In this document: positions 5,880 through 57,221 of the stretch, one piece after another
Layout of the letters: each line of letters starts with the position of its first letter
How positions within the stretch are numbered: position 1 is the stretch's first letter
Origin: Octopus vulgaris
Taxonomy: Eukaryota
DNA length: 64,000 bases
NCBI GenBank assembly: GCA_951406725.2
Contig: OX597820.1
Coordinates: forward strand, 128,216,001-128,280,000
Direction of reading: 5' to 3'
Made by a program: the position numbers and the translations under genes
The notes under the pieces: model-generated
The model's input: the letters and a program-made list of their open reading frames with translations, nothing else
Databases searched by the model: none
Told to the model about the DNA's origin: nothing

Positions 5880-6150
5880 CTGGAATTGTTAGCCCGTAGC
5901 TTGTAATTTCGATCAATTGTATCTTGTCCTCCCTCTTGTATAGAAGTGTGGCTACAATCCAGCCTACCTCTACTTCTGGGGGGGGAAGTCCATTTAAAAA
6001 TTTTTTCCGAGACGTCCTACGTCCCAGATATAAAGGTAAAAATAAAATAAAGTACTCCCTTGCACGCTCCGTTGACTCGAACCTTGCTTCTATTGTGGCG
6101 AATTTACCGCCTCTGATTAGATAACTTTCATAGTCGCACCAAGACACTTT
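5880..6150 (-). pseudogene. Older Tx1-family ORF1 fragment
   Basis: RGGKFATIEARFES..LFLPLYLGRRTSR..NGLPPPEVEVGWIVATLL..EDKIQLI aligns with ORF1 RGKKYGTVEVRFTS..LLPLYKGKRTSK..NNIPPEADAEVLVAAVM..EEKINIL. Confidence 0.75.
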
Positions 6151-6418
6151 CCGAAGGTGCTTTCCTCCAGGTTGTTTTATTATTACCCACAAGGGGCGAA
6201 CATAGATGGGACAATACAATCTGATGATGGGGTCAGACACACGAATGGGTTTTTACAATAAATCGAATTTAAAAATTTTCATGAATTACAATAAATGGAC
6301 AGAAATCGAATGATGGGACAGACCGGAAGACATTACGGGTGGAGTGGGTGCGGGTTTAGCTCGGACCCCACGAGCCCCGCCTCCCCACTGATACTTTTGG
6401 TTGCGCTTGGTATTACAT

Positions 6419-9400
6419 TTATGTTGTATCTTTCACTCGCAACTTTCGTGCTACATCCTTCCATCGTTCTTCATACACTCTCCTAGTCAGGCATATTCTC
6501 TCCAGCCCTATCTTCCTTTTCAGGTGAAAGATGAAATAATTCATCAAACCAGGGCCGGAGATGAACTTGCCTGACTGTAAACCTTTCATTCTCGTCTTCC
6601 ATATCACCTCTTTCGCAATTGCTACTACGACGAGAAAACGAAACTTACCTTCATTCACGAGGAAATCCGGTGGGTCAATTTTTGTAATCGACTCAGTCGA
6701 CAGCTGTACTCTTCGTGTACCTGACAACAGCTGTTCGGCATAAACCCACACCTCAGACACGTCCGGACAATGAACAATAGCGTGCGGGACGGTTTCCCTA
6801 TCCCGCCCGCATCTTGGACATATCGGACTGTCTTGGCCACCGTGCCTTGCGAGTTTATCCCGAACAGGTAGAGCTCCTCTGTAGCATTGCCATGCCAGAG
6901 ACTTCTGGAAGTTGTCCAGTGTCCTCGGCTTGAACGTACGTCGGAACAGACTGGCCAGCTGATTATCGTCGAGACCTAGGGTTTCCCCCAAGGTATCTTC
7001 ACATTCCGCCTCTACCAACCCTCTATAGAAGAATGTGGTGGAACCCCCACCGCAGGCGTTGCCCGAGCGACGGAATAGCAGGAGAGCCTTGCGACACTCC
7101 GTGTACCAAGTACCAAGTTTCGATCTACGATTCAGCCAGGTTTCCCATCCACCGAAACTAGTGAACTTGGGAAACATCAGTTTTGCTAGCGAAGACCACA
7201 CCCGTTCACCATCCAGGTAGAGCCACAGATGTCTTAACCTCAGCGCATGTCTGCGCATCATCAGCCAAGGCATCCCTAGCCCACCCTTTAACGGTTGTTG
7301 ACAGCAAGTAGAGCGTTTCACAAGTGGTTTCCCGCCCTTCCACAAGAAGTAGAAGAGCTGTCTTTCCAACTTGATCAACCACGAATCAGGGCAAGGAACG
7401 ACGGAAAGGCGGTAGGTGATAACCGATGCGATAAACACATTGGCCACCTCCGCCCTCCCTTTCAGGGATAGCCACCGCCAAGACCAGGTCTTGGCTACTG
7501 CAGCCACCTTGCTCGTTACCTCGCCCCAATTCTTCTCTATTTGGAGGTCTGGACCGAACCAGACCCCTAGCAGTTTAATCGGACCCTCCGTCCAACGTCC
7601 CACGACGCTGTCAGGAGGCATCGACTTGCCTCTCCAGGTGCCGAGTTGCAAGCCGACTGACTTTTCGCGATTAACTTTTGCTCCTGTCACCGTCTCGTAA
7701 ACCTCTATGGCCTTGCCTACTTTACATAGGTGATCCATTTCGGTTACGATGATGGTGATGTCATCCGCGTACGCTGACACTGATTTTCCATTACCTGGCT
7801 GTCTCGGGATGCCGCTCAGTTTTCGCAGTAATGGCTCAAGAGCCATCACGTACAAAAGCGGGGAGAGCGGACACCCTTGACGAACCGAGCGTTTGATTTT
7901 GAACGGCTTCGACAAGAAGCCGTTCACCCGAACTACCGAGTCGATGTTATCGTAAATTTGGATAATCCACCTGAGGAAGCCAAGGCTCAGCCCGAACTGT
8001 GCCAGGGCAGATACCAGGTAACGATGGTCGACCCTATCAAAAACTTTAGATTGGTCTAAATGGACCAGTGCCCCACCCTTGCCAGAATCACTATTAAACC
8101 CCTCTATAGTGTACCGCATTAGATGGAGATTATCCTGAATGGATCTGCCCGGAACGGCACATGTCTGTGCCTCTCCGATCAGACCATCCGCGACACGCGC
8201 CAATCTTTTCGATAACACTTTGGCCAAAATCTTCAACTCTGTGTTTAGCAGAGTGATGGGCCTGAAATTATCAATGCACTCCCCCTTGCTCGGGTCCTTT
8301 CTGACGAGAGTCACTACTCCCCGGCGCACAGATCTGGGTATAAGCCCGTTCTGCTGCCAGTTCGCATAGACCTCCGCCAGTAGGTGCCCGAACAAGTCTG
8401 GCATACTCTTATATAACTCATAGGGTAGACCATCCAAACCCGGCGCCTTGCCCGCGCCGCAGTCCGCCATTGCCTCAACCACCTCCTCAGGCGTGATTGG
8501 CCCTTCACAGCCCTCCGCATCTCGCCCCGATAAGCGCGGCAGCCCGTCGAGTAGGTCCGTAAAGGCCCTCCTCCTATCCAGTCCGCCGCACTCACCGAAA
8601 AGCTGAGCGAAGTGCTCCTGAAAGGCCTCACACATCTCCTCGGGTTCGTTTATCAACTCACCTTGTTGGTTCGTCAAAGATCGAATCGTGGCATCGTTAC
8701 CATGCTGAGCTTCCACCACTCGGGCCCATCTCACGGCGTTGATTCCTTCACATCCCATATGGCGGATTCTAGCCCTGACAATGCAGCCCATGTGTTTGGC
8801 CTCGAGGTGCTGGTTTAACACCAGTCTCTTGGACGCCACCTGAGCCGCAGAGCCAGTTTTCATGGCTTCCTCTAATTCCTTAACTAGAGTAGTTTCCCTT
8901 CTAGCCTCTCTAGCCACTACTCCTATGCTATATCTAATAGACTCAAACTTGATGGCTCGTTTGAGGGCGTACCACCATTTGTTATTAATGATGGTACCAG
9001 ATAGTGCCCTCTGAATTATATTCCTAATCCGGTCTTTGTACTCCTTAATCGCCAAAAGGGACGTATTAAGTTTCCAGTAACCGGATCCTCTATTTTTAAC
9101 CTTATCTATGTCAAGCTTACAAGTGACCATTTTATGATCACTGTAGCTGATCGGGTAAAACTGTGGACACTTAGCTATTTTACTGTCTACTTTTCTAATT
9201 AGTATTCTATCTAAATATGACCTGGAAGATCCGTCGCTGTTTGACCATGTCCACAATGGAGCGTTCGGAAATTCCAGCCTATAAGGATCTGCTAGCTCAA
9301 AGCGGCTTAGCAGTTCCATGAAGCCACTGTTGCCTTTTCTATCTGGACACGAGCCAACATAATCTACATCCGCTTTGCAAATTGTGTTAAAGTCTCCTAG

Positions 9401-9814
9401 CACCACTAATGAATGCGAAGTACCAAGAAAGTTTTCTAGTTCACGAAAATAATCACTTTGCCCTGTATGGTTGGGTGCGTAAATTGCAACCAGTCTGATA
9501 ACTTTACCATTACTGAACGTCAAATCCATGACGACCAGCCTACCTTCTGGATCTGCAAAAATTAACTTTTTCTCAGAAACCCGGTTTCTTTTTAATAGGA
9601 CCAACACCCCACTCCCGCCTGTAGGACTGCCAGGAGAGAAAAAACTCTCGTAGCCGTCAAACAGCGGGAGTAGACCTCTTGGCCTCTCTAACCGGGTTTC
9701 TGTAGCAACAATAACATCTAAATTACGCGACCTGATATCATGCAGGAAGCGACCTTGCTTCCAGCCTGCTCCCAGGCCGCGCACATTCAAACAACCAACA
9801 TAAATGTAATCCAT
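6419..9814 (-). CDS. ORF2: APE endonuclease + reverse transcriptase + C-terminal Cys/His zinc motif (Tx1/L1 clade), 1131 aa, intact
   Basis: Motifs CLNVRGL, GDFN, YLDRIL, SDH, WKLNTSLL, KAPGLDG, RPITLLN, RQGCPLSP, YADD, GGLG, CPRC..ETVPHAIVHC. Confidence 0.97.
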   Translation of the reverse strand: MDYIYVGCLNVRGLGAGWKQGRFLHDIRSRNLDVIVATETRLERPRGLLPLFDGYESFFSPGSPTGGSGVLVLLKRNRVSEKKLIFADPEGRLVVMDLTFSNGKVIRLVAIYAPNHTGQSDYFRELENFLGTSHSLVVLGDFNTICKADVDYVGSCPDRKGNSGFMELLSRFELADPYRLEFPNAPLWTWSNSDGSSRSYLDRILIRKVDSKIAKCPQFYPISYSDHKMVTCKLDIDKVKNRGSGYWKLNTSLLAIKEYKDRIRNIIQRALSGTIINNKWWYALKRAIKFESIRYSIGVVAREARRETTLVKELEEAMKTGSAAQVASKRLVLNQHLEAKHMGCIVRARIRHMGCEGINAVRWARVVEAQHGNDATIRSLTNQQGELINEPEEMCEAFQEHFAQLFGECGGLDRRRAFTDLLDGLPRLSGRDAEGCEGPITPEEVVEAMADCGAGKAPGLDGLPYELYKSMPDLFGHLLAEVYANWQQNGLIPRSVRRGVVTLVRKDPSKGECIDNFRPITLLNTELKILAKVLSKRLARVADGLIGEAQTCAVPGRSIQDNLHLMRYTIEGFNSDSGKGGALVHLDQSKVFDRVDHRYLVSALAQFGLSLGFLRWIIQIYDNIDSVVRVNGFLSKPFKIKRSVRQGCPLSPLLYVMALEPLLRKLSGIPRQPGNGKSVSAYADDITIIVTEMDHLCKVGKAIEVYETVTGAKVNREKSVGLQLGTWRGKSMPPDSVVGRWTEGPIKLLGVWFGPDLQIEKNWGEVTSKVAAVAKTWSWRWLSLKGRAEVANVFIASVITYRLSVVPCPDSWLIKLERQLFYFLWKGGKPLVKRSTCCQQPLKGGLGMPWLMMRRHALRLRHLWLYLDGERVWSSLAKLMFPKFTSFGGWETWLNRRSKLGTWYTECRKALLLFRRSGNACGGGSTTFFYRGLVEAECEDTLGETLGLDDNQLASLFRRTFKPRTLDNFQKSLAWQCYRGALPVRDKLARHGGQDSPICPRCGRDRETVPHAIVHCPDVSEVWVYAEQLLSGTRRVQLSTESITKIDPPDFLVNEGKFRFLVVVAIAKEVIWKTRMKGLQSGKFISGPGLMNYFIFHLKRKIGLERICLTRRVYEERWKDVARKLRVKDTT

Positions 9815-9828
9815 TACTTACCTTTATA

Positions 9829-11142
9829 TCAGTGGTTCGGTTTTTCTTCTTCTTCCTTCTCTTTTTCTGGGCCTCGTGGGGGAGTCTGACGCAGGCCCTC
9901 GAATATATATGGAGATGTTATATCCCTTCTGAGCGGGCCTACGTTATGGAAAAATTCGGACTTTATCCGTCCGTAATCCTTCCGGCCTATTCTGTACAAA
10001 ACATAGTCGTTTTTCCTCCCTATTTTTTCTACTTTGGCCATCGCTGCCAACACATTTCCGAGTCTATTGTTCGTGGCCTTAACGGCCATAAATGAGTTCA
10101 ATGACTCCCTTTTTTTTTTTTGGTTTACTTTGGGAGGGGTGGTTTCAGTTTTTCTTTTTTTTCTAGTGATTTTTGACCACCCCTCCTCCTTTTTCGTTTC
10201 CTCGCTCTTTTTTTCCCCCTCCTCCGTTGGTTCCGCTGCCTCTGTCACCTCCACACCTTCAGTCGTCCCTCCTGGGCCGACCAGCGCTGTTTCTGATGAC
10301 ACGGCTTCTTCTTTTCCACTTGGCTGAGCTGCTTCCTGCGGTTTGGGTTGGGGCTGGCATTCTGCCCTTACATGCCCTTTCTTACCGCAGCCGAAGCACC
10401 TCGGCTTTCTGCCCTCTACGAAGACTGTGACTCTTTCATCTTCGCTTATCCTTAGAGTCTCTGGGATCTCTTCCAGGGTTTGTACTTCTGCTTGTATGGC
10501 TATTATTATCTTTAGCCCTTTCCAGAATTCTTCTTCTTCTACGGTGGCCTGGAGGATGTTTATTTTTTCCTCCAGGCCTACCATAACTGCTGCCACCAGG
10601 ACTTCGGCATCCGCTTCTGGCGGAATGTTGTTCATTGTGATCTTGGAAGTTCTCTTGCCTTTATACAGGGGTAGGAGAACAATATCCTCCGCTTTTATGG
10701 GTTCCATGGATAGCTTCTTCGCTACCTCCTCTGACGTGAATCTCACCTCCACTGTGCCGTATTTCTTCCCTCGATTGATATATGTAATTTTATCCATTAT
10801 CGGCTTTAAGCAGTTTTCGATCTTTTTCTCCTCTATTTTTTGTATTGCTCTGCTTGTTATACTGAATGTCTTATAGATTATTCTCCTATTCGAAATTTCC
10901 TCCTGTATTTGGGCGTTTGAAGCCACGGTTACTTCCGTGCCCTCTTTTGACACACAGTCCGCATGTTTTCCCAGGTTGTCCACGTTAATTTTTTTAATTT
11001 TCTTCCCAGCTACTTCCGAAAATTTTCTCGCTGGTGCTGGAATATCTTTTTCCTTTGGCGACCCCGCCTCTTTTTTCTTTGGCGACACCGCCGGTGATCC
11101 TGCATCACTTGTCACAGGAGAATACGAGATGGGGGATTCCAT
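9829..11142 (-). CDS. ORF1: gag-like nucleic-acid-binding protein with CCHC zinc knuckle, 437 aa
   Basis: CFGCGKKGHVRAEC; lies directly upstream of ORF2; homologous to 32836-34068. Confidence 0.92.
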   Translation of the reverse strand: MESPISYSPVTSDAGSPAVSPKKKEAGSPKEKDIPAPARKFSEVAGKKIKKINVDNLGKHADCVSKEGTEVTVASNAQIQEEISNRRIIYKTFSITSRAIQKIEEKKIENCLKPIMDKITYINRGKKYGTVEVRFTSEEVAKKLSMEPIKAEDIVLLPLYKGKRTSKITMNNIPPEADAEVLVAAVMVGLEEKINILQATVEEEEFWKGLKIIIAIQAEVQTLEEIPETLRISEDERVTVFVEGRKPRCFGCGKKGHVRAECQPQPKPQEAAQPSGKEEAVSSETALVGPGGTTEGVEVTEAAEPTEEGEKKSEETKKEEGWSKITRKKRKTETTPPKVNQKKKRESLNSFMAVKATNNRLGNVLAAMAKVEKIGRKNDYVLYRIGRKDYGRIKSEFFHNVGPLRRDITSPYIFEGLRQTPPRGPEKEKEEEEKPNH

Positions 11143-11391
11143 CTCCGATAACTGGCTTTAACAAGCCCTTGGCACAACCAAGATAATGATAGTTTTTTCC
11201 CCCACTTAGGGGGGAAACACCAACACGAAGCCCTCGCACGAAGGCCGACTTCAATCGTTGTACAACAACACAGAAAGACAGCTAGACACACAGTAGATCA
11301 CAATGGAGAAAATATACACAATATAATAACTTACTATACACGCAAAAAATTGATTTCGGACAGGGGCTCAAATCTTCATTTTTTTCTCTAC

Positions 11392-12559
11392 CCATAGGGG
11401 CGACACAGAAGTGGACACCAAAAGACATGGGGACATAAAACATTTATAATTAAACTTTATGGAAAATGAATTGTTAAACGAAAAAATGAGAAAATGAAAG
11501 TGATACCAACGGCCCCATCCGTCAGCATCACTTACCTGTCCTTTGTTTTTCATCGTCCCTTGAATGTTCTTTGCCAATACGAATAAATTCCATATCCATT
11601 CTTACTCCGAAATACTCATCCATATTTTCCACGAATTCATCGCTCATTCTTATATCTTTCACCTCCCAATTCTCCCTTTCACACCTCACCATAAACTCAC
11701 CTATGTTCTTCTTTTCAATCACAGCATACCTAGTCTCACCCACTTCATACCATTTATACTCTTCCATTAGACTTTTAACTTCTTTCTGTTCAGTCATAGT
11801 ACAAATGTACGGCCTGATATCGACTTCAATCTCTTGTCTGTGTGTGTATTCTTTTTTTTTTCTTTTGTTTTCTTGTTGGGGGGGAGCGGGTGGGTTCAAT
11901 GTCTGCATGGATAGGGTGGGACTCAGAGGGTGTGGGTGGTTTTGGGGTAGATTGGTGTTCCATAGTATTTTCTTTTTTTCCACGCATTCTTCTCTTCCTC
12001 TTATTTCCAGCTTCCTTCCATTTCTGTGTATTCTCTTCCTCTGTTTCCTTCTCCTCTGGTTTCTGCTTCTCTCTCTCTGGTTCGGAATCCATTTCTTTCC
12101 TGGGTGTCGGTGATAGTTCCACCTCACCGCTTTCCTTTTTCATGTATTTCTGGTAACTTGGCAACTTGGCCATGTCTACCCCTTTCTCTTCCGCCTTCTT
12201 GGTTACACCGGCATAGGTATAACCCAGCTTCTCTTCCAAATTCCTTGCTGCCATTTCTAGCTCTTTCTCAGACGTAGGCAGGTCTGATATAGACTCGAAA
12301 ATTCCAGCCTTTTCTTCCATCAGCTTCATTGTAATTGCCTGTTCCAGTTCCTCATCTGTCGTGGACAAGTCTGTTAGCGACTCATAGTCCACTTCCCTCC
12401 GTCTGACAGACCGAAAACGGCCGCCAAAACAGAAAAAGTGCAACGCGCTGAACGAGCGAAACGCGAAACCGCGTCAACGCCGTTCAGAACTTCCACAACA
12501 ACAACAACCCTTTTTGTTCTTTTTTACCGAATTTTCAGCAGCCGAAAAAAACACAACCC
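11392..12559 (-). mobile_element. ORF1-only non-autonomous Tx1 relative (internally deleted ORF1)
   Basis: 5' UTR clearly homologous to 34076-34232. ORF pieces 11826-12443 and 11528-12127 (KLPSYQKYMKKESGEVEL) lack the central knuckle region. 3' tail GTCGCCCCTATGGGTA; possible TSD TTTTTCTCTAC at ~11380 and ~12560. Confidence 0.8.
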
Positions 12560-13254
12560 TTTTTCTCTACATTGTATACTTTATAGACAATAGTCTTTTC
12601 TTTAATTTAATTTTTTATTATCTATCTGGACTATTCCATTTCTGCACGCTAATTTTATTTTTAATTTATTCCCATTCATGTGAAACCACTTATTCAAGTT
12701 CAAGTCATTGATGCAATTTTATACCAATTGCTATTTTTACTTTTTTATGTTACGATTATATTATACTTTAGTTTGATTTTAATTATTACTTACTACATAT
12801 AATTCAATTGTTATTATTATTTTTATTGTTAAAGTGAAAGTATCTGACATAAAATAGAGAAATGTTTTTGTTTCACTTTTAACACGTAATACTGAAATAG
12901 TGGAGAAGATATGATATTATTATGGGCTCGCTCTAGGCAAGAAGTTGAACATTTTTTTTGCCCATGAAACTACATGGACCCTAAGTAAGGCATGTGTAAA
13001 ATTTGAATGAAATTGGTTGTGTAGTTCTCAAGTTTTAGGGAAATACACAGACAGACAGACAGACACACATTCTCAGTTTTATATATATAATAAAGATATA
13101 TATTAAGCACTATGTTGGGTTTTGTTAAGCGCGTGACCCTCCGATCAGTGGAAGAAAATTGCCTTGCATGAAACCAGTGGTACTAAAAAGGTCAGAGCTG
13201 CTGCTGCAGATGATCAGAATGTCACGTCATTATCCTAGGGGATGTCTTCCAGTA

Positions 13255-19654: not shown

Positions 19655-21060
19655 TTGAGGCCAAAATGTTCAGAACGGCATTGTTTTCGGCAGAAAAGTA
19701 GGTATAAGTTTTTATTAAAGTTGTTTTATATTCTATAATTTTCAGACAATAAATACAATATCAATTGTTGTCTGAGAGTTTGGTGTAATTTGAGAGGATA
19801 ATACAAAAGTTATGGATGATTTAGTGATTTACTGCAAAACCCATAGCGGCCAAAATGATCAGAACGGTTGAAAAAATAACAAAATAATCAAAAATGACAG
19901 AGAATACTGGAATTATTTAATATTTAGTGTGAAGCCCTTTAGCTTCAATCACACTCTGACGTCTTCGACTGCATGAGGAAATTAAATTTTCAATTTCTTG
20001 CTGGGTGATCTTATTCCATTCTTTCTGATGGGCATTCCATAATTGCTCAGTTGTTTTAGGAGAATATTCCACACATTTTCAATAGGATTGAGATCTGCGC
20101 TTTGAGCTGGTCAATCCATAACAATAACCTTTTCAGCCTTGAGGAAGTTCATGACCACCTTAGCCTTGTGACATGGGGCATTGTCCTGCATGAATATGGG
20201 TTGTCGCTTAGTTGAATTTCTCAGCACAGGCAAGACATGATCTTTTACAAGTTGTTTATAAACTCCTGCATTTAACTTTCCATGTAATCGCACCAAAGGG
20301 CCCACACCATCTCCAGATATCATTCCCCAAACCATGACACTACCTCCACCGAATTTAACACTAGTCTTAAGGCATTTAGGCAACAATTTTTCACCTACTT
20401 TTCTACGAACGTAACTTTTCTCATCTGATCCAAATAGCCTAAACTTAGATTCATCTCTGAAATGCACCGTTTGCCATTTTTCTTGAGACCACAACACATG
20501 TTCGGTTGCAAAAGTAAGACGACACTTTTTATTCTTGGAGCTGATCAGCGGCTTCACTGCAGGTGCTCTTGCTTGTAGGTCATGTTCAACTAAAGGACGA
20601 GACACAGTTTTTCGAGATAAAGTTTTCTTTAGTACAATGCTCATTTTCCGAGAAACAGCAGCAGCAGTTTTAAATCTGTCCTTTTTAACCAACTTTACCA
20701 TAGCACGATCTTCTCTCTTGGTCGTTTTTCTTGGCCTACCTGTAAACTTTCTTGCTTCACACGAACCACAATCATCGTAGACCTTAAGAATACCGTGTAC
20801 AACACTTCTTGACTTGTTAACAATCTTTGCAATAGAACCCAATACTTAAATTATCCTTCCTTCGAAGCTTAATAATCTGCTGACGAATTGGTAACGGAGT
20901 AAGTGGCATTATATTAACAAAGTACACTGCAAATATTCTTACTAATGTTTAGTAAACGAACCATCACATAAACAAATTCAAAACATTAGAGTCCGCCGGT
21001 TAAATATACTAAAACACGGAGTAAAAGTAACCGTTCTGATCATTTTGGCCGCCATGGGAT
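19652..21060 (-). mobile_element. Tc1-like transposon (IR/DR-type ends), defective
   Basis: TA-CAGTTGAGGCCAAAATGTTCAGAACGG outer repeat, inner repeat at ~19840, inverted repeat at ~21030-21057. The right outer end is missing. Confidence 0.88.
19920..20910 (-). pseudogene. Tc1 DD34E transposase, frameshifted, with stop
   Basis: GRPRKTT, HFRDESKF, VKFGGGSVMVWG, FMQDNAPCHKAK, *PAQSADLNPIE (ORF 20111-20842). Confidence 0.92.
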
Positions 21061-32307: not shown

Positions 32308-32428
32308 ATAGAGGGCATTATTACATATAAATGCCTCACACTAAGAGGGACAAAGTCATTACTACCAAAATTATACTAATCATACCTAAATGCAGTTTTT
32401 CAAAGCAAGACATTTAAAAAATGAATTT

Positions 32429-32486
32429 AGTTCTGTATCACCGTGATTTCACATTCAACTTACGTCTTATGATCCTCAGCAGAACT
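32429..32486 (-). ncRNA. Type I hammerhead ribozyme
   Basis: AGUUCUG-CUGAGGA-UCAU(..AC-GUAA-GU..)AUGU-GAAA-UCAC-G-GUGA-UA|CAGAACU; 7-bp stem I; U.U mismatch at the base of stem II. Confidence 0.8.
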
Positions 32487-32550
32487 GATTCTGAACACAT
32501 CATAAATAAACTACCAACCTTACGTAGCGAAGACGAACAGACAACTGCCC

Positions 32551-34244
32551 TATTTCTTTATTACCCACTAGGGGCCACGAAGAGGGAACATTACAAAACA
32601 TGGGGGACATAAAACAATGCGATTAAAATTATGATTAAATGAATGTTAAAATGAAAAAATGATAACATGAAAGCGATGCTAACGGCCCCTCCGCCAGCAT
32701 CACTTACCTTTCCGTTTCCTATCGCGATTCCAAAGTTTTTCACCTCACCTTTCATTTCTCTCTCATATCTCTCTATCATATCATCCTTCATATATACTGA
32801 TAAACAATTTATTCTTAGTTCATTGCACTTGCTCATCAAAGAGCCCATGAGTTCAAAATCGAATACCGCATAGCTTCCGTCCTCATACTCCTGCCATACA
32901 TCGTCTTCAAAAAGCCTTCTTGCGTTCTCAGTATCTCCCTTCCCCACAACACATAAAAAGTAGCACTGGGGCTTTTGTATGTTCTGTGTGTCTGTTTTCG
33001 TTTTTCTTGTAGGCGGGGAGTGGGTGGGATTGCTGTTTGCGGGGGCAGGATGGGTCTCCAAGGGTGTGGGTGGTATTGGGGTGGGTTGGGGCTTCGCACA
33101 GTTTTCCTTTTCTTTCCTTTTCTCTTCTTTCTGCCCTCCTCACACTCTTTTTGCATCTCCTCCTCCTCTGTCATTTCCCTTTCCGTCTGCTTCTCTTTAA
33201 TTTCTTCTTCTTTTGGGGCCTCCTCTTTTGGAGTTTCCTCAACGATTTCCTTTTCTCTTGGTGGGGGAGGGCAGAAGGCTCTTATGTGGCCCCTCAGGCC
33301 ACACTTGTAACAACGTGGAGCTCTGCCCTCCACCCACACTCTCATAATCACGTCTCCCAATTTAATGCTCTCCGCCAGGTTCACCAGTACCTCGCTCTCC
33401 GCCTGCACGTTCAGCTCCACTATTACGCCTCTCCAGCCCTCGGTCTTGACCGAGGCATGGAGAATATCTACTTTCTCCTCGTGGCCGCTGATCACAGCCG
33501 CCACAATCCACTCAGCCTCCACGTTTGGTGGCACTCCCTCCACCCTTACTCGTGTGATCCTTCTATTCAAGTACATAGGTAAAAGTGTTACCCTTTCTGA
33601 CTTCACCGCCTTCACCGCCATCCTCCTCGCTGCAGTCTCACTTTTAAAATGCACCACTACAGTACCGTACTTCGATCCTCGAGTCAGAAAAATGATTTCC
33701 TCCTCCGATCTTCTCAGGGCCTCCTCTATCCATTCCATGTTTACGATCTCTATTTTCTTTCTTTCGTTCACGAACACCCTGTAAATTATGGTCCTCTTAT
33801 TGTACCATTCCTTTCTCTTTGGTGGTGGTTCCAGTTCCACCTCGCCGCTGTCCTTCCTCATATACCTCTGGAAACCTGGCAATTTTTCTAGGTTTATTTC
33901 TTTTTCCTGTTCCGTCTTCTTTTTTGCAACTCCTGCGTACGTTTTCCTGTTTTTTGTCTCCACATTATTTACATCACCGATTTGCTCGTCTTCAGAGTTC
34001 GATGTCTCCGACAAGCTCTCAAATATCCATTCTTCCTCCGACTCCTCCACTAGGGAGTGGTCATCCATCTCCTCCCGCCTGACAGGCCAAAACGGCCGTC
34101 AAAACAGAAAAAGTGTTACGCGCAGAACCAGTGGAACGCGAAACCGCTTTAACGCCGTTCAAAATTTCCACAACAACAACAATTCTTTTTTATCTTTTTT
34201 TACCGAATTTTACGAGCGTAAAAAAACACGACCGAACTCAAACT
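32551..34244 (-). mobile_element. Full-length ORF1-only non-autonomous retroposon (HAL1-like Tx1 relative) with 19-bp TSD
   Basis: TSD GACGAACAGACAACTGCCC at 32532-32550 and 34245-34263; the empty site is present in the adjacent monomer; 3' tail GGCCCCTAGTGGGTAATAAAGAAATA; no ORF2. Confidence 0.92.
32700..34068 (-). CDS. ORF1 with CCHC knuckle and extra C-terminal domain, one frameshift (ORFs 32836-34068 and 32591-33061)
   Basis: RGSKYGTVVVHF, LLPMYLNRR, VEGRAPRCYKCGLRGHIRAFC. The C-terminal frame resembles 11528-11830. Confidence 0.8.
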
Positions 34245-34621
34245 GACGAACAGACAACTGCCCACTCCGGCCAAGCACATGGAATGTTTATAAATCATAT
34301 ATCCGGTAAATGGCGGGCTTTTTACGAACTGCATGTCGGGTAATGAAAAGTATTTCGGAATAAGTTTAACAATTAAGGATAACCTCTTAATAAGGGATCT
34401 TAACAAGAAATTATCGGGTAGTTAGCGTGAAAACCTCATAAAAGAAAAGAATTCGAAAATAATTTTTTCTTTTGAACAAATTAATTATATCTATATTGTA
34501 TAGAGGGCATTATTACATATAAATGCCTCACACTAAGAGGGACAAAGTCATTACTACCAAAATTATACTAATCATACCTAAATGCAGTTTTTCCAAAGCA
34601 AGACATTTAAAAAATGAATTT

Positions 34622-34679
34622 AGTTCTGTATCACCGTGATTTCACATTCAACTTACGTCTTATGATCCTCTGCAGAACT
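34622..34679 (-). ncRNA. Hammerhead copy with core mutation CAGAGGA
   Basis: Identical to 32429-32486 except U4 to A. Confidence 0.65.
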
Positions 34680-35029
34680 GATTCTGAACACATCATAAAT
34701 AAACTACCAACCTTACGTAGCGAAGACGAACAGACAACTGCCCACTCCGGCCAAGCACATGGAATGTTTATAAATCATATATCCGGTAAATGGCGGGCTT
34801 TTTACGAACTGCATGTCGGGTAATGAAAAGTATTTCGGAATAAGTTTAACAATTAAGGATAACCTCTTAATAAGGGATCTTAACAAGAAATTATCGGGTA
34901 GTTAGCGTGAAAACCTCATAAAAGAAAAGAATTCGAAAATAATTTTTTTCTTTTATGAGGTTTTCACGCTAACTACCCGATAATTTCTTGTTAAGATCCC
35001 TTATTAAGAGGTTATCCTTAATTGTTAAA

Positions 35030-35084
<55 letters not shown>

Positions 35085-35772: not shown

Positions 35773-35814
<42 letters not shown>

Positions 35815-35824
<10 letters not shown>

Positions 35825-36261
35825 TTAGAGACAAAACCACTATTTTGCAAAACAAACAAGGAAAGACTTAATCAATACATAAAATTTTAATAAAAAGTCA
35901 AAAAAACCGCCACTACAATTGTTTCTTGTCCTAATCGACAATCTTCAGGTGGACTTCCAATTTTCAATATATTTGTGTGTGTGTGTGTGTGTTTATACAT
36001 ATATGTATGTGTGTGTGTGTATGAAACTGACTTGAAAATTGGAAGTCCACCTGAAGATTGTCGATTAGGACAAGAAACAATTGTAGTGGCGGTTTTTTTG
36101 ACTTTTTATTAAAATTTTATGTATTGATTAAGTCTTTCCTTGTTTGTTTTGCAAAATAGTGGTTTTGTCTCTAATAATATTATATAATATTTTACTATAA
36201 AATTGGATTTAATCCTAAATCTGATTTTTTCCCTGTAAATTTGGATTTATTCCCTAATATT

Positions 36262-37198: not shown

Positions 37199-37349
37199 GA
37201 CTTTACAAAGCATTGGTAAATAGGTTTGAGTTATCTGTCTGTAGTTTCGATCGGGGAATTAATTTTGTTTTGTCGGCTAATAAGTAGTCGGTAGTCGGTG
37301 TTGATTCGGGTTTCTTGACTGATTCCTTGGATGTTGCTGCCGTATCCAT

Positions 37350-37396
<47 letters not shown>

Positions 37397-37929
37397 CCCT
37401 TCCTTAAGAAAATTACAATAAATAAAAAAGAAAAACCTAACAACCCACGAACAACCCCCAACTATCCTCCATACACTAAAAACAGAAATCACCCACAACC
37501 AACCTTTACAAACCACGCTAGACTTAACAGGGAACTAGCTGACAGAGGACGCGTCTATGAAAGAAATTACACCAAAAACAGAACAAACCAACAACATCCT
37601 AATACCAGACCCAACCACCATACAGCACAATACGACACTAGGATAAGAAATACACCACACACAAATCACTACTACCCCATGAACCAAAACTACTGGTCCC
37701 CACTAAACACAAGACAAACGCAAAGAAACACTATGTCAAGCAACATCCCACATACAAGAAGTTCGAAACAAAAATATTTCCCATACAGAAATTTTACACA
37801 CACCACAAGCATTAACAACCATAGATTCCCACACACACACAACGATCGGAGGCAACAATACCACCACTCCCCCGACCAAATACCACACAACCTCACAGAC
37901 AACTCATACAAACAAAATTACACCCAACA

Positions 37930-40260
37930 TTTTTTAGCCAGGGACCAGGGACACCAGGACACAGGCTGGAACCTAGTAATAAGGAAAAACCGAAGATAAT
38001 CAATCTTTCAACCAAACCTCTTTCTAACATAAAAATTGACATCCTCGCAAAAGGGCTCAAATTTACACCAACTCCACGCAGAGCAAACCTAAATGAACTC
38101 AAGGATAATATAACAGAATTTTGCAGAAAATTAAGACTAGCAGAAGCATCAAACAGTTTCAATACTGAAGATGAATCACTAGTCAAGAACAAAAGTGAAC
38201 ACATCCCACACAGAGGAAGAAATAAAGATCTTGACGAATTCTGTAACCACATTGAGAACTTCCCCTACCATACTATACATAAACAGAAAGCTAACCCAAA
38301 TTTTAACACTACACAATGGAAAGAACTGATAGAACTCCAAAATGATGAAGATATAACCATTAAGGAAGCGGACAAGGGAAATGCAGTTGTAATAATGGAT
38401 ACATCATACTACAGAAATCTTGTAATTTCCTTGCTTGATGAAGACCTACATTATGAAAAAATTACCAGCTACACCCCACAAAAAATAATGAAAACTCTAT
38501 CTTCACTAATTAAAACCCATGAAAAGGAACTGACAACCAAAGAGATTGATTTCCTAACAAACTTTAAATGCAAACCTAGCCTTTTCTATGGTCTGCCAAA
38601 AATTCATAAAAGTCAAATTATAAATGAAACCATTAAAAAATCACCAAAGACATACATACACACACCTAATCCGGGGGACCTAAAACTACGACCCATTGTA
38701 GCTGGCCCAACCTGTGAAACACACAGACTAAGTCTACTTATGGACATCCTCCTGAAACCCTTCCTTAAACATATCGATAGCCATATCAGAGATGACTTAG
38801 ATATGTTAAACCACCTTCCAAAAAAAACCAAGGAAGAAACAATCCTGGTTTCATTTGATGTAGTCAACTTGTATACCAGTATACCTCATAATTATGGACT
38901 GGAGGCAATACAGTTCTGGTTAGACCAATTTCCGGAAGAAATACCAAAAAGGATCAGTAAGGAATTCATTACTAAATCAATTGAATTCATCCTACACAAT
39001 AACCACTTCATGTTTGACAATACATTTTACCGTCAAAAATCCGGAATTGCTATGGGTACAAGGGCAGCACCAGTCATTGCGAACTTAACAATGGGATACA
39101 TGGAAATAATCATTTACCAGGAATCTCTATCAATCTTTGGAAACTCCCTCTCTCAATACATAAAAGAGAATTGGAAACGATTCCTAGACGATTGTTTCAT
39201 TCTCTGGAATGAAAACATAGATAAACTCCTAAAATTTAAAAACCTATTGAACAGCATAAACCCAAATATACAGTTCACAATGGAATACAACCAAAAGGAG
39301 CTCCCGTTCTTGGATATACTAATTAAAAAAATTAACCTTAAAATAGAAACAGACATTTTTTACAAAGCCACAGACGCCAAACAATACCTTCTTTTTAATT
39401 CATGCCACCCAAGACACACTAAAACAAACATCCCCTTCAACCTTGCAAGAAGGATATGCACAATAGTGTCAGAACAAAATACCAGGAACTTTAGACTGCA
39501 AGAACTCAAAAACACCCTAATTGATAGACATTACCCAGCTCAACTCATAGAGGATGGGATCAGACGTGCAACAGAAATCAACATAGAAACTTTAAGAAAA
39601 GTTCAACACAACAACACACCTTCCCCGAAAATACTACCTTACATATCTACATACAACCCCAGAAACAAAGAAGCCTTCACCATCATCACCCAGAATTTAC
39701 CAATACTTCATAAAAACCCAAAATTAAAGGAAATTCTAAACATACACCAAATCATTAAAAGCTACAAACAGCCTAAATCACTTAAAAAGATTCTCACAAA
39801 GGCAAAATTGTCTTCTAAAATTACGGATGCAAAAGTAAAAAAATGTGGTAGATCGAACTGTGCAACATGTCCTAACCTATTGGAAGGATCAGAATTCTTC
39901 TTTAAAGAGGGACAGAAATTCAAGATCAAATCTAACTTTACTTGAGCCTCTGAAAACATAATTTATGTTATTAAATGCTCGGGCTGCCACCAATACTACG
40001 TGGGTTCAACGGGACTATCACTCAGGCGTAGATGCACACTGCATCGACAACAGATTGCATTCCCAGAATATAGAATGATACCTTTTAGTGAGCACATTGA
40101 GAAATGCGCAAAGCAAATACTGCCACAATTTTTAATCTTCCCATTTTACCAATGTGCTTTCGGATCATCAACACAAATGAGACTGAACAAGGAAACATTC
40201 TTCATTGAAAAGTACAAACCCAGACTCAACCATCCGAAAATACTGACACAGAGAAATTAA
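37930..40260 (+). pseudogene. PLE RT + GIY-YIG polyprotein; one in-frame stop at 39943-39945
   Basis: IINLS, KGLKFTP, IKEADKGNAVVIMD, FYGLPKIHK, LRPIVA, SFDVVNLYTSIP, GIAMGT, RFLDDCF, LPFLDI, then FT*ASENIIYVIKC..YYVGST..R..H. Confidence 0.93.
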
Positions 40261-43647: not shown

Positions 43648-44599
43648 TCTCTCTATATATAAACGGCTGTTTGTCTGTCTGTGTGTCTGTCAGGTTGTAC
43701 CCTCACCCTGACCACGGCTTTCAACCGATTCTGATAAAACTTGACACGCACATAGCCCAATGTCATAATTCAAAACTAACTTAGCGAAAATTTTGAAAAG
43801 TTCCCCCAGTTCTGAAAAAGATCGATAAATTCGACATGGGGTCGAAAATCAGAAACACAAACCACAGACTGTCTAGGGGACGCAACTCGACCTTTTTAAC
43901 TCTGAACTCCATCAATATCCAGCTACTTGAAGCTATTCCTGGTGATGTCCACGTCTACAAATCTATTGATAGGACAGCAGACCCCACCGAGCTTGCCGAT
44001 TATCCTGTTGAATTCCTGAATTCACTTGAACCGCCAGGCCTGCCGCCACACAGCCTGAAGTTAAAAGTCGGTGCGCCCATTATGCTTATCAGGAATTTGG
44101 TTCCACCTGAACAGTACAACGGCACACGTCTGGTTGTGAAACATTTGGCACCACATTTAATAACGGCCACAATACTTACCGGTTGTGAGAAGGGAGAGGA
44201 CGTCATCATTCCACGCATGCACATTCAACCGTCGGGCGCTGACCTACCAATCCACTTCAGGCGTTCTCTGTTTCCTGTTAAACTCTGCTTCGCAATGTCC
44301 ATCAATAAATCCCAAGGCCAAACGCTACAAGTCGCTGGGTTACATTTGGGCGAACAGTGCTTCGCCCACGGTCAACTCTATGTGGGCTGTTCACGCGTTG
44401 GGAGGCGCAATGATGTTTTCATGTTTTCGCCCAAAGGGACAGGTAGGAACATCGTATACACAGAAGTATTCGAGTGAAGAGAAGACATTGCAACCTACAC
44501 ATGCGCCTTCCTTCCCTAGAGGGAAAGGACTAGATTGGGATTAGTCGTTGCCTACTAGGGGCTCTTACATACCCGGGAAACGCCGGGCTATGCTGCTAG
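43648..44599 (+). mobile_element. Helitron family A deletion derivative retaining the helicase C-terminus
   Basis: A|TCTCTCTATATATAAACGG...CCCGG-GAAACG-CCGGG..CTAG|T; 5' part shared with 838-1222. Confidence 0.92.
43900..44477 (+). pseudogene. Pif1-like (RepHel) helicase C-terminal fragment
   Basis: YPVEFLNSLEPPGLPPHSLKLKVGAPIMLIRNL..NGTRL..FPVKLCFAMSINKSQGQTL..CFAHGQLYVGCSRV..NIVYTEV. Confidence 0.93.
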
Positions 44600-52549: not shown

Positions 52550-54000
52550 AGCCACGGCATGCTTAGTCATCCACTCAGCGGCTGCTGAGAGCAGATGGTC
52601 CATCTGACGAGCAGAACACGAATACGTCCCTTCCACAGAAAGTAGAAGTGCAAGCGCTCCACTTTGATAAGCAGCAAAGACGCGCAATGGACGATGGCCA
52701 GGTGGTAGTAAATGACGGAAGTAATGTACACATCTGCCACCTCCGCCCGACCCTTTAGGAGCAGCCTCTTCTCTGTCCCATTTCTGAATGAGATTGGCCA
52801 CAAACCTCGTCATCTCCCCACCTCAGTTCTTGACCACTTGAAGGTCTGGACCAAACCAGCCTCCAAGCAATTTAACCGGTCCTTCTGTCCAGCGCCCCAC
52901 AACGCTATCGAGTAGCATGCACCTGTCACCACAGATGCCGAGCTGCAGGCCCACCGACTTCTCCAGGTTAGTCTTTGTTCCTCTCACCCCTCACAATTCC
53001 GATAAATGACCATTTACTTTGACCACCGAACAGATGTCGCTGCAGACTGCCGCGATCCAGCCTCTAAAATCGTGTCCGAAACCGACCACCGCGAGGAAAG
53101 TCTCCAATTATTGATGGTCGACCCTGTCAAAAGTTTTTGATTAATCCAAATTGATCAGGGCCCCACCAATCCCAGGTTCCTTGCCAACCGTTTCTGGGAT
53201 GTAACGAGTGAGGTGGTTATCATGGATAGATCTGTTTGGAACAGCGCATGTCTATGGATAGTTTCTGGAAACTATCCATAGGCCCCGGCCCGAAAGTCCT
53301 CCGCGAAAGACCAGATAAATGATCTCTCTCAACGCTCTGAGATTCTCCTAAGATGTCATCGCTCTTGCTCATTGCTATTCCCCTATAGAACTCCAATGTG
53401 GAACTTTCACCGACCACATTGCCTGACTGGTTGAGGGCTGTGAGCACTAGCCGGCATTCCAGATCCTACGCGCTCATCCTCAGCCAGTTTATCGACAAAC
53501 GCCAACCTCTTTGCTAACACCTTGGCCAAAATCTTATAATCTGCGATTAGCAGAATTACGGGCCTAAAATAATCTCGTCCCCCTTGGTCGATTCCTTTTT
53601 TAGCAGCACGACCACACCACGGCTCACAGGACTAGAATTCTCCCGTTTTGTTGCCAGATGCAGTAGACATCCGCCAAGAGTTCATCGAACATGTCGAGCC
53701 CGTCCTAGTCCGTCAAAGACCGAACGAATTGTAGCTTTGTTTCCACGTTGCACCTCTCCTCTTCCACCTGGACCATCCAACGGCTTTCATCCCCTCGTGA
53801 TTTAATGCACGCGCCCTAGCTCTGACAACACAACCTTCGTATCTGGTACTGAAGAATTTATTAAGAGGTAATCTCACCGCCAGCACATCAATCGCTATGC
53901 CTCTATTAAGTGCTTTTCTAGTTTCCTATTCCTCTAACGTTAATTCTTTACGAAACCCTAACACCTTTACTCTAATGTTCTTTTTCAGTGCTATCCACCA
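52550..54000 (-). pseudogene. Degraded, rearranged Tx1 ORF2 related to 6419-9814
   Basis: LKGRAEVADVYITSVIYYHL, RLHFYFLWKG, LINLD*SKTFDRVDH, RPVILLIADYKILAKVLAKRL, RRTFGPGPMDSFQK. Confidence 0.85.
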
Positions 54001-54699
54001 TCAATTGAACCAAAGCTACTGAAAGAAAATGCGATTTAGGTAAAAGTTAAATCATTCGATTAGATACTGGCACCGAAATGAGGGAACTGGTCTAGAAAGA
54101 ATCTTAAAAATTCTTTAGAATAGCTGAAACTGATAAAATACAACAGAGATGTAGGAATAAATTAGAAAAGCGTATCACAGAATAGTTAGACTTATATTAA
54201 AGGCCGAGCTCAATACTAGACATAAAATTGTGTGTGTGCAGACAATCTATCTTGATTATAAATTACTGCTGCAACATGGTTACATGGAAGTGTAATAAAT
54301 TGAACAGCCAAGACAGAAAAACATGGAAATACTGGTGACGTTCGGAGGTCATTATCCCAAGACCGACACAAATAAAATACACCCAACACATAACAGAAAG
54401 CAAACAGTATCTGATACAAATAGAAAACTACTACGAAGGTTAAATAGTAGCTTTAGAAAATTACTTGGAAGCAAGCTAGTGAAAACATAATTAGTGTACT
54501 AAGGAAATATGAAGTATATCAAATGTTTTTACCAAAAAAGCCATATCCCCATTGTTCTTCAGATTTTCCTTCTCCACTCGGACAGCCATGTAAACTAAAC
54601 TTTACAAAGAGATTTACACGTCTTCGTGAAGAGTATCCAGCTTCTTGTTTGCTTTTTGATACTCCGTGTTTCATGATCAGTTCCTTATTAGTTTCCTAT

Positions 54700-56290: not shown

Positions 56291-56624
56291 TCCAAGCTTC
56301 TCTCAATAGTTTCATGCTTTATGAATAATACAAAACTTTCCTTTCTTAAGTCCATTTTACTCATAGATGCCAGGGAAACATATCTATATATCTTGTGTAT
56401 CATATGTGATGCACAGGACAAGCAATGGATGTTCACATGTCTCACAGTGAATAAAAATAAAAGACATTTATGTAAATGAGTAGAGTCAAAATTATCTATG
56501 GGAAATTTTAAAAGCTTTCTTGTTGACGAGTTGTGGATAAAAATACAAGACTTTTCTGGAAATGAATATCGACAAAAATATTTACAGAAACTTACGAAAT
56601 CAGCATCGATAAAAATGGTGTCTG

Positions 56625-57221
56625 GTCAATTCGTCGACAGTAATTTGTCGTCGTTTAATTTTGTTCCCAGTCAATTCGTCGACAGTAATTTGTCGTCGTT
56701 TAATTTTGTTCCCAGTCAATTCGTCGACAGTAATTTGTCGTCGTTTAATTTTGTTCCCAGTCAATTCGTCGACAGTAATTTGTCGTCGTTTAATTTTGTT
56801 CCCAGTCAATTCGTCGACAGTAATTTGTCGTCGTTTAATTTTGTTCCCAGTCAATTCGTCGACAGTAATTTGTCGTCGTTTAATTTTGTTCCCAGTCAAT
56901 TCGTCGACAGTAATTTGTCGTCGTTTAATTTTGTTCCCAGTCAATTCGTCGACAGTAATTTGTCGTCGTTTAATTTTGTTCCCAGTCAATTCGTCGACAG
57001 TAATTTGTCGTCGTTTAATTTTGTTCCCAGTCAATTCGTCGACAGTAATTTGTCGTCGTTTAATTTTGTTCCCAGTCAATTCGTCGACAGTAATTTGTCG
57101 TCGTTTAATTTTGTTCCCAGTCAATTCGTCGACAGTAATTTGTCGTCGTTTAATTTTGTTCCCAGTCAATTCGTCGACAGTAATTTGTCGTAGTTTAATT
57201 TTGTTCCCAGTCAATTCGTCG
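56625..57221 (+). repeat. 45-bp tandem repeat, ~13 near-identical copies
   Basis: Unit GTCAATTCGTCGACAGTAATTTGTCGTCGTTTAATTTTGTTCCCA (3 x 15-bp subunits); one substitution in the last unit. Confidence 0.97.

Follow-up and report, generated by a model that had tools for sequence, protein, structure and literature searches.

What does a perfect splice-donor sequence do at the boundary between the two open reading frames (ORFs) of a long interspersed nuclear element (LINE)? The question is raised by a 64,000-nt stretch of Octopus vulgaris DNA (assembly GCA_951406725.2, contig OX597820.1, positions 128,216,001 to 128,280,000; hereafter the window, to which all coordinates refer unless another locus is named). 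Element A of the window is a LINE on the minus strand. Its ORF1 (9829-11142; 437 aa, with one CCHC knuckle) is followed, after a 14-nt spacer, by ORF2 (6419-9814; 1131 aa, with an APE endonuclease, a reverse transcriptase (RT) and a C-terminal zinc finger). AAG/GTAAGT (the slash marks the exon-intron boundary of the consensus) occupies 9816-9824 of that spacer, with its GT at 9821-9820, and is referred to here as D1. Two elements that contain only ORF1 carry the motif as well: CAG/GTAAGT at 11530-11538 (minus strand) in element B, overlapping the stop codon of the last ORF1 frame, and AAG/GTAAGT at 32702-32710 (minus strand) in element C. The reading preferred here, tentatively and at a little less than an even chance, comes from sequence comparison: D1 would be a lineage-specific conserved 5' splice site, from which ORF2 is spliced out onto an acceptor in the 3' untranslated region (UTR) to yield an ORF1-only mRNA. 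That these motifs are working U1-binding or splice sites of some kind is, all in all, probable.

Perfect donor motifs in the window

The U2-type 5' splice-site consensus is MAG/GTRAGT, and all three sites match it at nine of nine positions. The initial annotation had placed three such motifs at these minus-strand coordinates, and there they are. It overlooked a fourth match, at 6643-6651 (minus strand), which lies inside ORF2 of A and spells E-G-K codons. Relatives of this ORF2 carry E-G-R or E-K-R at the corresponding place and no stable hairpin forms there; the fourth site was considered as a second functional donor, rejected for its lack of conservation in relatives, and is likely a chance occurrence that is not part of the feature. 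Nor are the three elements independent cases, as had been supposed: B and C share 77% identity across the 170 nt that surround the motif and 83% at their 5' ends, so that they count as one lineage and the window holds two. Placement of the motif at the end of ORF1, claimed for all three, stands for A and B. The C-terminal ORF1 frame of C runs across the motif in phase 0 as K/V-S and continues for 38 codons to a stop at 32591-32593.

The sequence MAGGTAAGT occurs four times in the window, compared with 0.96 expected, and four or more occurrences are found in 3/100 shuffles. The chance of encountering the motif in a chosen 30-nt stretch is 0.0003-0.0005 (by Markov models fitted on the three elements). 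Thus, it is the position of the motif that is unusual, not its number.

ORF2 of A matches Pfam families PF03372, PF00078 and PF13966, and its nearest solved structure is human L1 ORF2p (E 4e-65, as against 1e-25 for R2). This closeness to L1 ORF2p and the combination of APE, RT and C-terminal zinc finger place A in the L1/Tx1 group. Its assignment to the Tx1 clade is presumptive (the label comes from the initial annotation, and the RT tree contains no named Tx1 references). ORF1 of A is 62% identical to P0001 of Octopus sinensis, one of two proteins that the homologue search gave for A.

Assembled contigs of four of the 22 listed runs (X1, X5 and X7, whose RNA status is guessed, and one likely DNA run) were compared with the A and B stretch of the window; element C lies outside this comparison. 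None of the listed runs is recorded as RNA. An extra base at 9840 is present in contigs of X1, X5 and X18 (accounting for all depth in X1 and X5 and 346/1105 in X18) and in none of X7. With this base, ORF1 ends in L-I-stop two bases before the donor, like the C-terminus of P0001. The TGA stop at 9829 is therefore likely to be particular to the window copy of A, other copies ending a few bases nearer the donor.

Conservation of the motif in related elements

A search with an ORF2 alignment fetched 137 loci, among which the nearest relatives with DNA available form tandem arrays in contigs assigned to a bacterial metagenome-assembled genome (G001). The flanks of these arrays are AT-rich with TA microsatellites, and the arrays are likely to be animal host DNA that contaminates the bacterial assembly. 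The family that they contain, here called M, shares with A only 39% identity in ORF2 and about 26% in ORF1. G001 yields 70 ORF2-start matches: 65 M starts, three from a sister family (L116) and two extra fragments of one broken copy. (A)G/GTAAGT stands directly behind the ORF1 stop, as TAA(A)G/GTAAGT, in 65/65 M copies (64 found by pattern, for which a control pattern gave 1, and the 65th by direct reading). Five variants of the M spacer are distinguishable; their first changes fall at +7 and +8, that is, right behind +6 of the donor. Apart from the non-coding 8-mer of the motif itself, no spacer sequence can be aligned between A and M.

As an observation in its own right, at least 16 contigs of G001 (C3-C15 and C17-C19; loci L083-L147) are animal-type DNA made up of head-to-tail, mostly intact LINEs. 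Spacing within the arrays is 6.4-6.85 kb and the N-terminal parts of ORF1 differ between arrays, which gives the appearance of an unusual self-targeting array.

A quick tree built from 79 RT rows unites A, M and L116 in one clade (SH-aLRT 100). The wider comparison covered 154 ORF1-ORF2 junctions in 51 clusters, 48 of them outside this clade. A nine-of-nine donor within the 60 nt that precede the ORF2 start is found in A, in M and in one of 48 outside clusters (two of its five copies); the background rate of perfect donors is 4/3439 windows. The donor is also absent before ORF2 of L116, so that it cannot be taken as a general trait of Tx1-type elements. Scans of viral contigs turned up no clade member and only two distant loci. 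Where ORF2 should start, no ATG is present in distant L1/Tx1-type elements at loci L009, L062, L074, L075, L077, L131 and L136, and L075 and L077 have an eight-of-nine donor 19 nt upstream of that position.

The phase of the donor relative to ORF1 differs between lineages: it lies 1 nt after the stop in M and 2 or 7 nt after it in A, and is in phase 1 in B and in phase 0 in C. This implies constraint on nucleotides rather than amino acids. The motif is thus conserved as a nucleotide sequence irrespective of frame, across four phases and in every M copy, in the way expected of a U2-type 5' splice site. (All three window sites can also be read as Gly-Lys-stop. This coding explanation was rejected because ORF1 of M and of the other A copies stops before the motif, and because the frame of C reads K-V-S across it.) As far as sequence can tell, the motif is a real, conserved and lineage-specific signal in the shape of a splice donor. 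The proposal of a conserved donor is in this respect strengthened, since the site is kept at a homologous non-coding place over a divergence that leaves ORF2 39% identical.

Shared ancestry combined with chance, by which a purine-rich spacer is simply inherited without function, would dispense with any such signal. Perfect donors do occur elsewhere in these elements, B and C amount to one lineage, M copies are young, and L116 has no D1, all of which this explanation accommodates. It leaves unaccounted for an identical non-coding 8-mer shared by families so far diverged, given the low background rate of perfect donors, and the existence of another donor where ORF2 ends (see below), and is very unlikely.

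RNA structure, downstream signals and the proposed splicing

D1 of A is predicted to lie in the stem of an RNA hairpin (9788-9839, minus strand) whose loop contains the ORF2 AUG. The z-score of this hairpin is -4.3, with 0/200 shuffles as stable; z varies between -2.4 and -4.5 with the window that is folded and is -1.3 on an 81-nt window. B and C have predicted 15-bp hairpins that are homologous to each other (11498-11533, z -4.5, and 32671-32705, z -4.6; both on the minus strand). In B, the 5' arm begins in the donor, from +3 onward. All 15 pairs are kept in both elements, with four one-sided changes, and the comparison, in which the non-homologous 3' UTR of A does not count, beats no shuffle test. 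In 4/4 M representatives a single hairpin is predicted to take in both D1 and the ORF2 AUG, weakly so (z 0.0 to -2.2).

These structures bear on an explanation in which likeness to a donor is incidental: GGT AAG followed by a stop that overlaps the ORF2 AUG (TRATG), together with a hairpin, would serve stop-start translation of ORF2. Reinitiation has been described for SART1 and L1 (PMC5972666; here and below, published systems are compared through excerpts of the papers cited). SART1 has a stop-restart site with structure downstream, and its UAAUG coupling resembles the present junction in that a stop overlaps the ORF2 start with RNA structure nearby; the excerpt describes no splice site as part of that coupling (PMC5972666). 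A stop overlapping an ATG is present at the end of ORF1 in A (window copy), B, M and L116, and the shared hairpins of A and M fit as well. Yet L116 keeps the stop-start arrangement without the motif, the M hairpins are weak, and survival of the motif in B and C, which have no ORF2 to translate, is left unexplained. So are the second donor behind the ORF2 stop, its exchange between GTAAGT and GTGAGT, and the acceptors, which make translation coupling quite unlikely as the reason for the motif.

This second donor, D2, is present in 62 M copies at the ORF2 stop or 17 nt behind it, in the form GTAAGT or GTGAGT, either of which is compatible with U1; there is no special fold at these second donors. 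L116, for its part, has CAG/GTAAGT 43 nt behind its ORF2 stop. Among 59 ORF2-end contexts from outside the clade (a few of them shortened by contig ends), none has GTAAGT or an eight- or nine-of-nine donor within 90 nt. In 61 M copies a pyrimidine tract with a TAG acceptor follows 236-263 nt downstream, in the 3' UTR, and an unrelated, all-pyrimidine tract with TAG lies about 140 nt behind the L116 donor. (At L093:9562-9632 and its homologues, inside the predicted 3' UTR intron of M, an invariant 11-bp inverted repeat surrounds about 53 nt; it is a candidate RT-recognition element.) A broader splice program, with a donor at each ORF end and a shared 3' UTR acceptor, is conceivable for this LINE clade but rather doubtful. 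It would generate a spliced ORF1-only mRNA, a spliced two-ORF mRNA and an unspliced template, and would be, for LINEs, the counterpart of the subgenomic RNAs made by retroviruses and copia.

The 3' UTR of A (6175-6418, minus strand) contains AATAAA at 6176-6181 and a weak candidate acceptor at 6221-6245. The AG of this acceptor (6222-6221) is the first after a 139-nt AG-free stretch, with a pyrimidine tract of only 0.65. Splicing from D1 to this site would remove a 3.6-kb intron within which all of ORF2 falls.

From the sequence, position and conservation of D1 we infer U1 binding, splicing, use of such an acceptor and an effect on the ratio of ORF1p to ORF2p, in the following manner. U1 would pair with D1, and some transcripts would be joined from D1 to the 3' UTR acceptor with removal of ORF2. 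LINEs need far more ORF1p than ORF2p, a ratio that is generally ascribed to translation of one two-ORF RNA; the spliced ORF1-only mRNA would supply extra ORF1 (packaging) protein, while unspliced RNA would yield ORF2p and serve as template. A hairpin over the donor would keep splicing partial. Nonsense-mediated decay follows a 50-nt rule, and with only 1-7 nt between stop and junction the spliced mRNA would be spared.

Several lines of evidence weigh against this proposal. On the side of conservation, the sister family L116, inside the clade, lacks D1 in 3/3 copies, and the independent lineages with D1 number no more than two to three. Taken by itself, the invariance of the motif among M copies does not reach significance (P about 0.4, with variation at 14% of 86 fourfold sites), and perfect donors at other positions within these elements reduce the distinction of D1. 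On the side of acceptors, no donor follows the ORF2 stop of A, whose sole 3' UTR acceptor is weak, B and C have no clear acceptor in common, and the M acceptor lies within a predicted stem, without compensatory change, so that structure could explain its conservation. As to transcripts, each of the three putative RNA runs has contigs that read through 9821 without splicing, and 11535 is likewise spanned by a contig of X5. No joint coincides with either donor among the 15 listed of 203, and no loose end does so among the 24 listed of 1428. The initial annotation had proposed a search for RNA junctions at the site; the contigs contain unspliced forms. A spliced form less abundant than the unspliced one would not reach these lists.

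Finally, no spliced genomic copy of a D1 or a D2 junction is found in the G001 arrays (the sole one-mismatch junction match lies on contig C1, of more than 2.4 Mb, and controls give 1 and 1). LINE RNA is copied mainly by the protein that it encodes. With this cis preference, the absence of spliced D1 copies is to be expected, because transcripts that lack ORF2 would not undergo copying in cis. The same preference speaks against frequent splicing at D2, unless the D2 intron holds something that the RT needs.

The unspliced contigs and the absence of spliced genomic copies are equally what would be seen if U1 small nuclear ribonucleoprotein bound these sites without ensuing splicing, holding back cleavage and polyadenylation or keeping RNA nuclear, and so securing a full-length or read-through template. 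The donor is situated in a last exon 150-700 nt before AATAAA in B, in C and at D2 of M, ATTAAA follows D1 of A at 226 nt, and elements are arranged head to tail; U1 has such a role in the copia element EVD (PMC5580714). On the other hand, AATAAA and ATTAAA are absent from the 3.9 kb after D1 in 5/5 representatives of the M subfamilies, which leaves no canonical near target for U1 there. Strong acceptors downstream of D2 in M and L116 also count against it, and the hairpins of A, B and C would hinder U1 pairing. This U1-only role is rather unlikely. Of the three mechanisms entertained initially, splicing out of ORF2 nonetheless appears to fit the sequence best, with U1-only control of the 3' end second. 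The third, exon donation to host genes, finds no support.

Host genes also enter into a scheme in which ORF1 is a cassette exon, its donor joining a 5' UTR acceptor that belongs to the next tandem copy, to the same copy (to form a circular RNA) or to a host gene. The tandem arrays would suit it, as would the acceptor-like sites that B, L085, L093 and L116 have in their 5' UTRs. No site passes the same threshold in the 5' UTRs of A, C and L140, the single go-back joint among those listed (12551 to 11462) coincides with neither a donor nor an acceptor, and no host exon was found in the ORFs of the window. This is the least probable of the explanations considered.

Published systems and the ORF1-only elements

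The closest parallel to D1 as a splice donor for an ORF1-only mRNA comes from Ty1/copia elements (Arabidopsis EVD and Drosophila copia), in which a conserved U1-type donor gives rise to a short mRNA for GAG, and early termination is restrained by U1 as well (PMC5580714). In both settings the donor follows the structural gene, and a short mRNA for the structural protein would stand beside an unspliced RNA that is the genome; the roughly 3-kb intron of Drosophila copia, with its normal 3' end, compares with the 3.6 kb predicted here (PMC5580714). The differences are that Ty1/copia are long terminal repeat (LTR) elements with one ORF and demonstrated splicing, whereas splicing is predicted here for a LINE with two ORFs, and that the donor here is at or after the ORF1 stop, with a second one after ORF2 in relatives (PMC5580714). 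A, as a two-ORF LINE without LTRs or GAG-POL organization, is not itself a member of this group.

Human L1 shows that functional donors and acceptors exist in an L1-group LINE. However, the events that generate its spliced integrated retrotransposed elements (SpIREs) lie in the 5' UTR or join 5' UTR to ORF1, inhibit retrotransposition and are dead ends, and LINE splice sites are, in the excerpt, regarded as mainly detrimental to the element (PMC5860796). A site at the end of ORF1 that is kept over deep divergence points instead to use by the element. The introns of TART lie on antisense transcripts (PMC1636488). Target-preferring LINEs of the Tx1 clade (PMC4494074) resemble A in their APE-RT-zinc finger ORF2, knuckle-containing ORF1, insertion into repeats and tandem arrays; the donor, in contrast, is absent from most of the L1/Tx1-type families sampled here.

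A literature search found no report of a conserved donor where a LINE ORF1 ends (subscription papers, Repbase entries and supplements were not covered). If the proposal is right, a LINE lineage turns the host spliceosome or U1 to its own expression in the manner of copia elements. Strong donors carried by active LINEs could also disturb host transcripts; L1-Tx1 families have been recently active in Octopus vulgaris, with 13 families and 421 insertions (PMC13282606).

Element B (11379-12560, minus strand) is an internally deleted, ORF1-only element directly upstream of A, and its family is found in contigs of all four runs. Element C (32551-34244, minus strand) is a complete 1.7-kb retrotransposed element with ORF1 in two frames (32836-34068 and 32591-33118, minus strand); the homologue search returned no protein for it. 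C has no match to ORF2, is flanked by a 19-bp target-site duplication (32532-32550 and 34245-34263, minus strand) and has an A-rich end, which makes it a HAL1-like, ORF1-only, non-autonomous LINE. Its insertion context is a duplication within a tandem unit, and there are too few sites for a target consensus. Since ORF1 of C is only 35% identical to that of A, A is not the autonomous parent of B and C, which probably derive by deletion from a related, donor-retaining family. Both retain the GT and the intron-side bases downstream of it, which bears out the earlier remark that neither is a simple spliced retrocopy. In consisting of ORF1 and a 3' end without ORF2, and in the case of C with its own duplication, they resemble HAL1, HeT-A and Ag-Sponge; a perfect donor and hairpin at the end of ORF1, as kept by B and C, are not mentioned in the excerpt that describes those elements (PMC5786205).

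The C-terminal frame of C ends in a 38-residue, mostly hydrophobic tail (32591-32707, minus strand) encoded by a T-rich 3' region. The tail may be a chance product of base composition; a similar peptide is encoded by another frame of B.

A and B sit together in an older, decayed ORF1-like repeat, whose remnants are 5880-6174 and 12561-12700 of the window and whose empty form is present in contigs of 4/4 runs, at very high depth. A decayed and rearranged ORF2 fragment related to A is found at 52555-54006 (minus strand), with its ORF1 junction missing.

Beyond these elements, no Rfam match reaches gathering score in the window, in seven array loci or in five flank loci, and there are no tRNA genes. 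Two tandem units of about 480 bp lie at 34609-34823 and at 32416-32550 plus 34245-34343 (minus strand), the second split by C. With an upstream element, a TATA-like box and about 150 nt ending in a T run, they bear what we take to be a resemblance to Pol III type-3 small RNA genes; the unit that C splits has only a chance match in Rfam (E 2.3), and folding is not special (z 0.15). Two long inverted repeats (35808-36190 and 34840-35034; 86% and 95%) adjoin them. From the look of their ORFs, 37331-39945 is presumably a Penelope-like RT, 43836-44477 a fragment of a PIF1-like helicase and 20111-20701 a fragment of a Tc1-like transposase, and 56498-57193 is presumably a 42-bp tandem array.

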